Positions 15,606 through 16,181 of a stretch of 64,000 bases of DNA are shown here, piece by piece. How positions within the stretch are numbered: position 1 is the first letter of the stretch; every line of letters begins with the position of its first letter. Under the pieces are notes generated by a model. That model was not told where the DNA came from, did no database searches, and was given only the letters and a program-made list of their open reading frames with translations. The DNA lies in sequence record PQ511150.1, one strand, 5' to 3'. The DNA comes from Escherichia phage NHEP29. Both the position numbers and the translations under genes were made by a program.

Positions 15606-15819
15606 AAGGAATTTCCTCATCGGTGGCAAGGTCATATTCGACCAATTGGATAGGCTCATTAATACCATATCCGCGTACAGTGATATCGGTTGACGGATAT
15701 TTTCCAGTAATATCACCCGTTCTAAATGCTTCAATGAATGATTGCTCGCCTGAGCAACTAAACCAGGCGGCAAAACATTTTAAAACATCTTCAGACCCTT
15801 CTATAATCAATTTAGCCAT
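15595..15819 (-). CDS. Hypothetical protein
   Basis: 74 aa ORF overlapping neighbours by a few nt. Confidence 0.5.
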   Translation of the reverse strand: MAKLIIEGSEDVLKCFAAWFSCSGEQSFIEAFRTGDITGKYPSTDITVRGYGINEPIQLVEYDLATDEEIPYVD

Positions 15820-16181
15820 TATAGACTCTCAGTAAAGGTACGAGCGATAACGTCGCGCTGCTGTTCTGGAGTCAGAGAGTTAAAGCGAACTGCATAACCG
15901 GATACACGAATGGTCAGCTGAGGATATTTTTCCGGATGCTTAACTGCATCTTCCAGAGTTTCACGACGCAGAACGTTAACGTTCAGGTGTTGACCACCTT
16001 CAATTTTAACTTTAGGTTGATGTTCAATTTCAATTTCACGGGCATTCAAACCGTAGAAAATTTCCGGGTCTACAATAGCGTCTTCTTTAAAAGTCTTAGA
16101 GACAATAATCCGGGCTTGAGTACCGTCTTCAAAATAAATAGTGCCTTTATGTGCACCTTCAAGAATTTGATATGCTTTCAT
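15819..16181 (-). CDS. Autonomous glycyl-radical cofactor (GrcA/YfiD-like; T4 Y06I-type)
   Basis: C-terminal glycyl-radical motif [27 protein letters not shown]. Confidence 0.9.

Follow-up and report, generated by a model that had tools for sequence, protein, structure and literature searches.

How do strictly virulent phages, which degrade the DNA of their host and modify their own, still carry a 175-nucleotide (nt) patch that matches the host chromosome at 98-100% identity? The question is raised by a small gene at positions 15819..16181 (minus strand) of a 64,000-nt stretch of DNA from Escherichia phage NHEP29 (sequence record PQ511150.1; this whole stretch is hereafter called the window). 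The gene, which runs from ATG to TAA and encodes 120 amino acids (aa) plus the stop, resembles bacterial grcA (yfiD) and is the ortholog of T4 vs.6, whose product is known as Vs.6 or Y06I. A sequence-only reading had described the product as a phage-encoded autonomous glycyl-radical cofactor with a C-terminal half nearly identical to host GrcA and a more divergent N-terminal half, hinting at recent capture or gene conversion from the host. Comparison at the DNA level supports that proposal: vs.6 is a mosaic, in which old, phage-specific codons 1-59 are followed by a structured-domain tract replaced from chromosomal grcA. Taken together, the Mosigvirus-type vs.6 is very probably a spare part of the GrcA/YfiD kind with a 3' tract from host grcA, for which recurrent exchange appears to be the most likely origin.

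Alignment with E. coli GrcA and T4 Y06I revealed no ordinary divergence across the whole protein. The translation ends exactly in the 60 residues quoted in the sequence-only reading, and these are 100% identical to residues 68-127 of E. coli GrcA (60/60), whereas the first 60 residues agree at only 18 positions (30%). The same division is seen in the DNA. The host-derived tract (15829..16003, minus strand; gene nt 179-353, codons 60.2-118.2), which encodes the structured glycyl-radical domain, is identical to E. coli grcA at 172 of 175 nt, and codon-by-codon alignment showed all three differences to be synonymous. The phage-specific N-terminal part (16004..16181, minus strand; gene nt 1-178) shares ancestry with the N-terminal region of GrcA, but the lineage is old and has diverged, with 48.9% nucleotide and 30% amino acid identity to E. 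coli. Maximum chi-square analysis placed a breakpoint at gene nt 178 (chi2 = 108), with 92 mismatches in the 178 nt to its left (52%) and 6 in the 185 nt to its right (3%), and none of 10000 permutations reached the observed maximum (p<1e-4). Identity with E. coli grcA is lost again directly 3' of codon 118. When the whole 64-kb window was compared by megablast with 5,426 complete E. coli genomes, the sole match was 15811..16003, the rest of the window (1..64000) giving no match at this level in these genomes. In T4, the corresponding tract differs from E. coli grcA at a single position out of 175, which is non-synonymous (R73H), with no synonymous difference. E. coli pflB was also considered as donor of the tract and was discarded, given that its identity to the grcA tract of E. 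coli is only ~80%, as against 98% between grcA and the phage tract.

Protein identity alone would be no evidence of recency, because in Pseudotevenvirus-like phages the same residues are encoded by very different DNA. These phages (L104, L105 and L106 from IMG/VR, and L088:260-622, Klebsiella phage iPHaGe-KPN-11i) have 57 codons (61-117) that encode the exact E. coli GrcA sequence; L104-L106 are identical to GrcA in all 60 C-terminal residues, and the last residue of KPN11i is Ile, not Leu. As a control, they keep the tract protein without non-synonymous change (dN = 0) at a synonymous divergence (dS) of 1.3-1.6, so that protein identity at such saturated dS is a mark of very strong purifying selection. 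Proof of recent DNA exchange in the T-even lineage comes instead from identity at synonymous sites. By the Nei-Gojobori method, the window had a tract dS to E. coli of 0.073 and T4 one of 0.000, compared with 0.38 between E. coli and Citrobacter, 1.13 between E. coli and Salmonella, and a range of 0.38-1.56 among hosts; Salmonella and E. coli grcA differ at 29 of the 180 nt of the C-terminal 60 codons. In a set of 80 bacterial grcA genes, those nearest to the phage tract were from E. coli (3-6 nt apart over the last 180 nt) and an Escherichia sp., the nearest other species of the set lying at least 13 nt away; Citrobacter amalonaticus grcA is 13 nt from E. coli. The tract was thus replaced by homologous recombination with E. 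coli grcA, in an exchange as recent as divergence within Escherichia.

These data bear on a rival explanation, namely that the capture was ancient and that, with no recent exchange, identity has been held by purifying selection for the fit to host pyruvate formate-lyase (PFL) and PFL-activating enzyme (PFL-AE), synonymous sites included. The extreme constraint on the C-terminal 60 residues, with dN = 0 in L104-L106 and KPN11i, speaks for such selection, but those very phages stand at a dS of 1.3-1.6 against 0.07 in the window and 0.00 in T4, and protein selection therefore does not preserve synonymous sites. Enterobacterial hosts themselves are separated by a dS of 0.4-1.1. In addition, the tract of Jiaodavirus carries Klebsiella-specific synonymous states, and among T-even phages the tract is as polymorphic as the N-terminal part and yet has no fixed differences, as described below. 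An ancient capture is effectively refuted by the synonymous-site data, and we regard it as very improbable.

The two parts of the gene also gave different trees. For the N-terminal part, phages were split from hosts with 100% bootstrap support, T-even and Jiaodavirus phages falling together at 97%, and dN and dS between the window and T4 were 0.055 and 0.392, respectively. For the tract, T-even phages grouped with Escherichia at 94.6%, and phage monophyly received 0%. At 0.48, the GC content of the tract ranks in the top 0.8% of 171-nt windows; it is 0.38 in the window as a whole and 0.50 in the corresponding stretch of E. coli grcA. The comparison of codon usage proposed in the sequence-only reading was informative only in part: all five Leu codons of the tract are CTG, which accounts for 9% of phage Leu codons, but the codon fit of the tract under the phage's own table was unremarkable (mean log relative synonymous codon usage, z=0.13). 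Codon usage is only weakly informative here because the preferences of T4 and of strongly expressed E. coli genes overlap, Leu CTG and GC content being the sole features that discriminate.

Near-identity alone gives no direction, and the 3' tract of E. coli grcA could in principle have come from a T-even phage. Nevertheless, transfer from host to phage is favoured, because the E. coli tract fits the species tree and is present in all E. coli genomes: dS between E. coli and Citrobacter is 0.38 in the tract and 0.57 in the N-terminal part, and between E. coli and Salmonella 1.13 and 0.80, as the species tree predicts, and the tract is carried by all 5,426 genomes. The GC content given above and the CTG Leu codons, which are atypical of the phage, also argue against a phage origin, as does the fact that Klebsiella phages match Klebsiella and not E. 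coli; transfer from phage to host is thus hardly credible. Phage lysates are commonly contaminated with host DNA, so host reads misassembled into the phage sequence have to be considered as well. However, a tract with identical boundaries occurs in ~640 independent genomes, including the T4 reference; the window and Escherichia phage AV110 share three private single-nucleotide differences within the tract, and none of the 5,426 E. coli genomes is closer; furthermore, the reading frame runs unbroken from the phage-specific part. The probability of such an artefact is negligible.

To place the exchange in time, four Mosigvirus-type sequences (the window, AV110, L093 and L094) were compared with T4-type phages. 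Twelve differences between the two groups are fixed in nt 1-178 and none in nt 179-353, although polymorphic sites are similarly frequent in the N-terminal part and the tract (15 versus 19; Fisher p=4e-4 and 5e-4), and the identity between the window and T4 rises to 97-98% in the tract from 64-92% in its flanks. From the absence of fixed differences and this identity peak it follows that the tract was homogenised after the split of Mosigvirus and Tequatrovirus. The distribution of phage records by identity to the E. coli tract is bimodal, with 365 records at ≥99%, 277 at 95-99% and 3 at 90-95%, which brings the phage genomes that have the E. coli tract at ≥95% identity to ~640; in certain Tequatroviruses all 175 nt are identical to E. 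coli.

A second pair of phage and host behaves likewise. In Jiaodavirus phages of Klebsiella/Raoultella (L084:301-663, L085:301-663 and L119), vs.6 differs at 8-9 of 171 nt from grcA of the Klebsiella pneumoniae complex (L175-L178:301-684), whereas Klebsiella and E. coli grcA are 22-24 nt apart and the Jiaodavirus tract is 26-29 nt from that of the window. The Jiaodavirus tract has Klebsiella-specific synonymous states, shares the 5' breakpoint at the EGGQH codons and has its 3' limit near codon 114, and the Klebsiella tract is matched by 140 phage records at 90-97%.

Could a single event account for the T-even tracts? A single recent host-to-phage conversion in one T-even lineage might have been followed by spread from phage to phage among Tequatrovirus and Mosigvirus, with no ongoing exchange with the host. 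T-even phages recombine readily in co-infections, all T-even tracts radiate from one sequence, and the polymorphisms shared between E. coli and the phages are statistically not compelling, all of which would be expected under a single event. On the other hand, fixed differences between the clades reach both edges of the tract (upstream at gene nt 162 and 170, downstream at 360). Repeated transfers between phages would therefore have to cross over precisely where homology to the host ends, a boundary that a host donor imposes automatically. Moreover, the independent Klebsiella-type tract with its shared 5' breakpoint shows that the process has happened more than once. We therefore consider a single conversion followed by spread possible, but rather unlikely.

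Several points nonetheless weigh against recurrent exchange. Bootstrap support for the Klebsiella clade was only 73%. No Salmonella-matched class of tract was found among phages, the best match to Salmonella reaching 88% and belonging to Klebsiella phages; with no near-identical phage counterpart of Salmonella grcA, host tracking is not universal. The polymorphisms shared by E. coli and the phages at nt 204 and 219 are within chance expectation when synonymous sites only are considered, and the GC-to-AT bias of the phage-private changes in the tract is weak (about 7 versus 5). T4 degrades host DNA, which bears on the recombination of host fragments into wild-type phage. Recurrent conversion is not cleanly separable from one recent conversion followed by phage-phage spread.

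With this reservation, recurrent exchange with the host would proceed as follows. During infection, fragments of the degraded host DNA would recombine with vs.6, and each conversion would renew a long perfect homology that favours the next, so that the module would follow the current host, that is, E. coli for T-even phages and Klebsiella for Jiaodavirus. We lean slightly towards the stronger proposition that vs.6 undergoes concerted evolution in its 3' module with the chromosome of the current host, grcA fragments repeatedly overwriting the phage copy in lytic infection and the tract ending where homology ends. Such concerted evolution would be self-reinforcing, with up to 175 nt of perfect homology restored per conversion. 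Matching of the module to the host may be adaptive, since its role requires both docking into host PFL and recognition by host PFL-AE. If this proposition is true, vs.6 provides a natural and quantifiable case of marker rescue from host to virulent phage. It would operate for T-even phages with E. coli and for Jiaodavirus with Klebsiella, two genus pairs at the least, and Krischvirus may add a third module swap.

In the Krischvirus-type phages, vs.6 of L123:1192-1608 and L092:267-683 (Enterobacteria phage Whisky) differs at 3 of 234 nt in the N-terminal part and, in the C-terminal module, at 47 of 180 nt, the change falling at the same EGGQH breakpoint. The donor of this module is absent from the sequence set, in which the nearest bacterial grcA is 36 nt away. 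A 122-aa homolog with an N-terminus of its own is present in T5-like Demerecviridae (L091:320-688 and L135-L161; ~108-121 kb; from Salmonella/E. coli), in which the C-terminal module is at least 45 nt from any sampled bacterial grcA; hence the spare-part gene is not confined to T4-like phages. Two other candidates were dropped: the 116-kb phage EC.W14-2, with a 100% identical tract, was taken at first for an independent conversion in a T5-like phage but is a Tequatrovirus record, and the IMG/VR sequence L121, 16 nt from Yersinia grcA, encodes a GrcA of bacterial type and is not a phage mosaic.

What does the protein do? Its assignment as a GrcA-type autonomous glycyl-radical cofactor was borne out by the open reading frame (ORF) and by profile and structure matches. 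Pfam Gly_radical (PF01228) covers residues 60-101 of the 120-aa protein with 67.3 bits (cutoff 22.2; E=2e-18), and the GrcA chain of the nuclear magnetic resonance structure 6OWR in the Protein Data Bank (PDB) matches at E=2e-42, well outside what chance would give. Residues 57-120 align to PFL 696-759 (E=3e-26), so that G95 falls on G734 of PflB and G102 of GrcA. The glycyl-radical motif R92-V-S-G95-Y96 is encoded at 15894..15908 (minus strand) by the codons CGT GTA TCC GGT TAT. The family phrog_1209 is matched over the full length (residues 1-120 to profile positions 1-121, E=9e-63). The NCBIfam model TIGR04365 gave 159.1 bits, below the 170-bit equivalog cutoff, compared with 233.9 for E. 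coli GrcA, and its alignment to the phage protein begins at residue 18; the protein stays under the cutoff because its N-terminus is divergent. It is probably GrcA-like in its working, yet belongs to a distinct phage subfamily. Homologs at the DNA level were detected in ~1,500 of 50,697 phage records, T5-like phages among them. Family names are inconsistent: phrog_1209 is listed as of unknown function, and GenBank entries name the product a hypothetical protein, pyruvate formate-lyase, 2-ketobutyrate formate-lyase, ribonucleotide reductase subunit or GrcA.

Neither the gene nor its biochemistry is new, both being established for T4 Y06I/Vs.6 and the GrcA family. According to PMC8683613, Wagner et al. 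2001 (Knappe group) reported that PFL-activating enzyme puts the glycyl radical on both E. coli YfiD and T4 Y06I, and that each of them restored the activity of PFL cleaved by oxygen at Gly734, the rescue by T4 Y06I being an in vitro result. In YfiD, the N-terminal region and the C-terminal domain divide the labour, residues 1-60 taking part in radical installation; the N-terminal region is disordered in E. coli GrcA, and the structured C-terminal part duplicates the C-terminus of PFL (Andorfer et al. 2021, PMC8683613). The gene was conserved in six of six T4-like genomes (Nolan et al. 2006, PMC1524935). The spare-part mechanism of GrcA is established for the T4 ortholog and presumably applies to the phage protein described here, although its function is in this way extrapolated from T4 Y06I (93% identical) and E. 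coli GrcA, which, together with the score below the TIGR04365 cutoff, tells against too firm an assignment. According to this model, the gene would be expressed from the early-region block of minus-strand genes, host PFL-activating enzyme would place the radical on Gly95, and the C-terminal domain would dock into host PFL cleaved by oxygen at Gly734 and restore its activity. The supply of formate, acetyl-CoA and ATP would thereby be sustained in micro-aerobic infected cells after the shut-off of host expression; as host genes are silenced by T4-type phages, it is reasonable to suppose that a phage-encoded supply keeps PFL running.

PFL-derived formate is the reductant of the anaerobic (class III) ribonucleotide reductase, which links the two pathways, and the main client of the phage protein might be a glycyl-radical enzyme other than PflB, such as host TdcE or the phage anaerobic ribonucleotide reductase NrdD. 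A role in nucleotide metabolism was indeed proposed for vs.6 on the basis of its Gly_radical match (Nolan et al. 2006, PMC1524935). However, the C-terminal domain is identical to that of GrcA, the match to PFL 696-759 (E=3e-26) exceeds those to other glycyl-radical enzymes (1e-12 or weaker), and the motif is RVSGY and not the NrdD-type RVCGY. A search for an NrdD-type glycyl-radical motif or gene as an alternative client found none within the 64-kb window. As cleaved PFL is also rescued in vitro by T4 Y06I, again according to PMC8683613, we consider a main client other than PflB unlikely.

The locus itself is typical of T4-like phages. The position of vs.6 in the tk-vs-regB-denV early region is conserved, with neighbours on the same strand; the flanking minus-strand ORFs match regB, vs.1, vs and denV, in the order annotated for AV110 and T4. 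With its counterpart in AV110, a Mosigvirus, the gene shares 99.4% identity, and the source of the window is a T4-like phage of Mosigvirus type. Upstream lies a vs.7-like ORF (16188..16559, minus strand; TTG start as listed, 123 aa), the PHROG match of which starts only at residue 22, so that translation probably begins at an internal Met. On inspection, a Shine-Dalgarno-like GAGG (16186..16189, minus strand) appears to stand 4 nt 5' of the ATG, at the 3' end of the vs.7-like ORF; on the strand of the grcA-like gene the stretch reads TGAGGTTATATG. At the other end, the stop codon overlaps the start of the vs.5-like ORF (15595..15819) in a TAATG (15817..15821, minus strand), as given by the ORF coordinates, an arrangement that suggests translational coupling of the grcA-like gene to this downstream ORF. 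A scan of 14.5-18.5 kb for promoters and terminators gave counts at or close to those expected from shuffled sequence and was given no weight.

Nothing new follows on the function of the protein, and the value of the locus lies in the DNA-level result: vs.6 is ordinary as a gene, but its evolutionary signature is unusually clean, and the host-identical patch coincides exactly with the structured domain that must fit the host enzymes. No description of a host-identical tract in vs.6 was found in the open-access literature that was searched. In a 2026 typing study, grcA serves as a pan-genome 'core gene' and as a polymerase chain reaction (PCR) marker for E. coli Straboviridae (PMC12845203). While vs.6/grcA appears to be the best-conserved 'core' gene of Straboviridae, this conservation is partly borrowed from the host. 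Cross-reaction of the published grcA primers with host grcA was considered and dropped, since the forward primer lies in the phage-specific N-terminal part. As a compact and tractable system, vs.6 lends itself to measuring the recombination of host DNA into lytic phage genomes, and could be used to test whether the matching of an auxiliary gene to its host is adaptive.

Among known systems, the closest is T4 Vs.6 (Y06I, NP_049730), the homologue that the sequence-only reading had named, which is likewise 120 aa long, 93% identical and syntenic, being placed between vs.7-like and vs.5-like ORFs near regB/denV, and is annotated in RefSeq as autonomous glycyl radical cofactor GrcA. T4 vs.6 is a mosaic like the window gene, with an E. 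coli-like 3' tract. Seven of the eight amino acid differences between the two proteins fall within the N-terminal 59 residues, the sole difference in the C-terminal half being position 73, which is His in T4 and Arg in the window and E. coli; conversely, the window tract has three private synonymous changes (codons 87, 91 and 105) that are absent from T4. E. coli GrcA/YfiD (P68066) is, as the phage protein, a stand-alone glycyl-radical cofactor with an RVSGY radical site and a homologous N-terminal region, but at 127 aa it is 7 residues longer, shares 66% identity overall and is expressed from the host grcA promoter, whereas the phage copy stands under the early-region gene block. The C-terminal domain of PflB (residues 696-759; PDB 1H16) shares the fold element and the radical glycine, but PflB is an enzyme of 759 aa, and the phage protein corresponds to the detachable cofactor module alone. 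With respect to evolution, the nearest likeness is cyanophage psbA, which, as reportedly described by Sullivan and colleagues in 2006, exchanges segments with its host homolog, giving rise to mosaic genes and incongruent trees. Like vs.6, psbA is an auxiliary metabolic gene of lytic T4-like phages, and it is reported to undergo intragenic recombination between host and phage. In contrast to psbA, the vs.6 tract is short (175 nt), sharply bounded at the limit of homology and coincident with a structural domain, and it reaches up to 100% identity to the host in certain phages, within enterobacterial phages that modify their own DNA and degrade that of the host.

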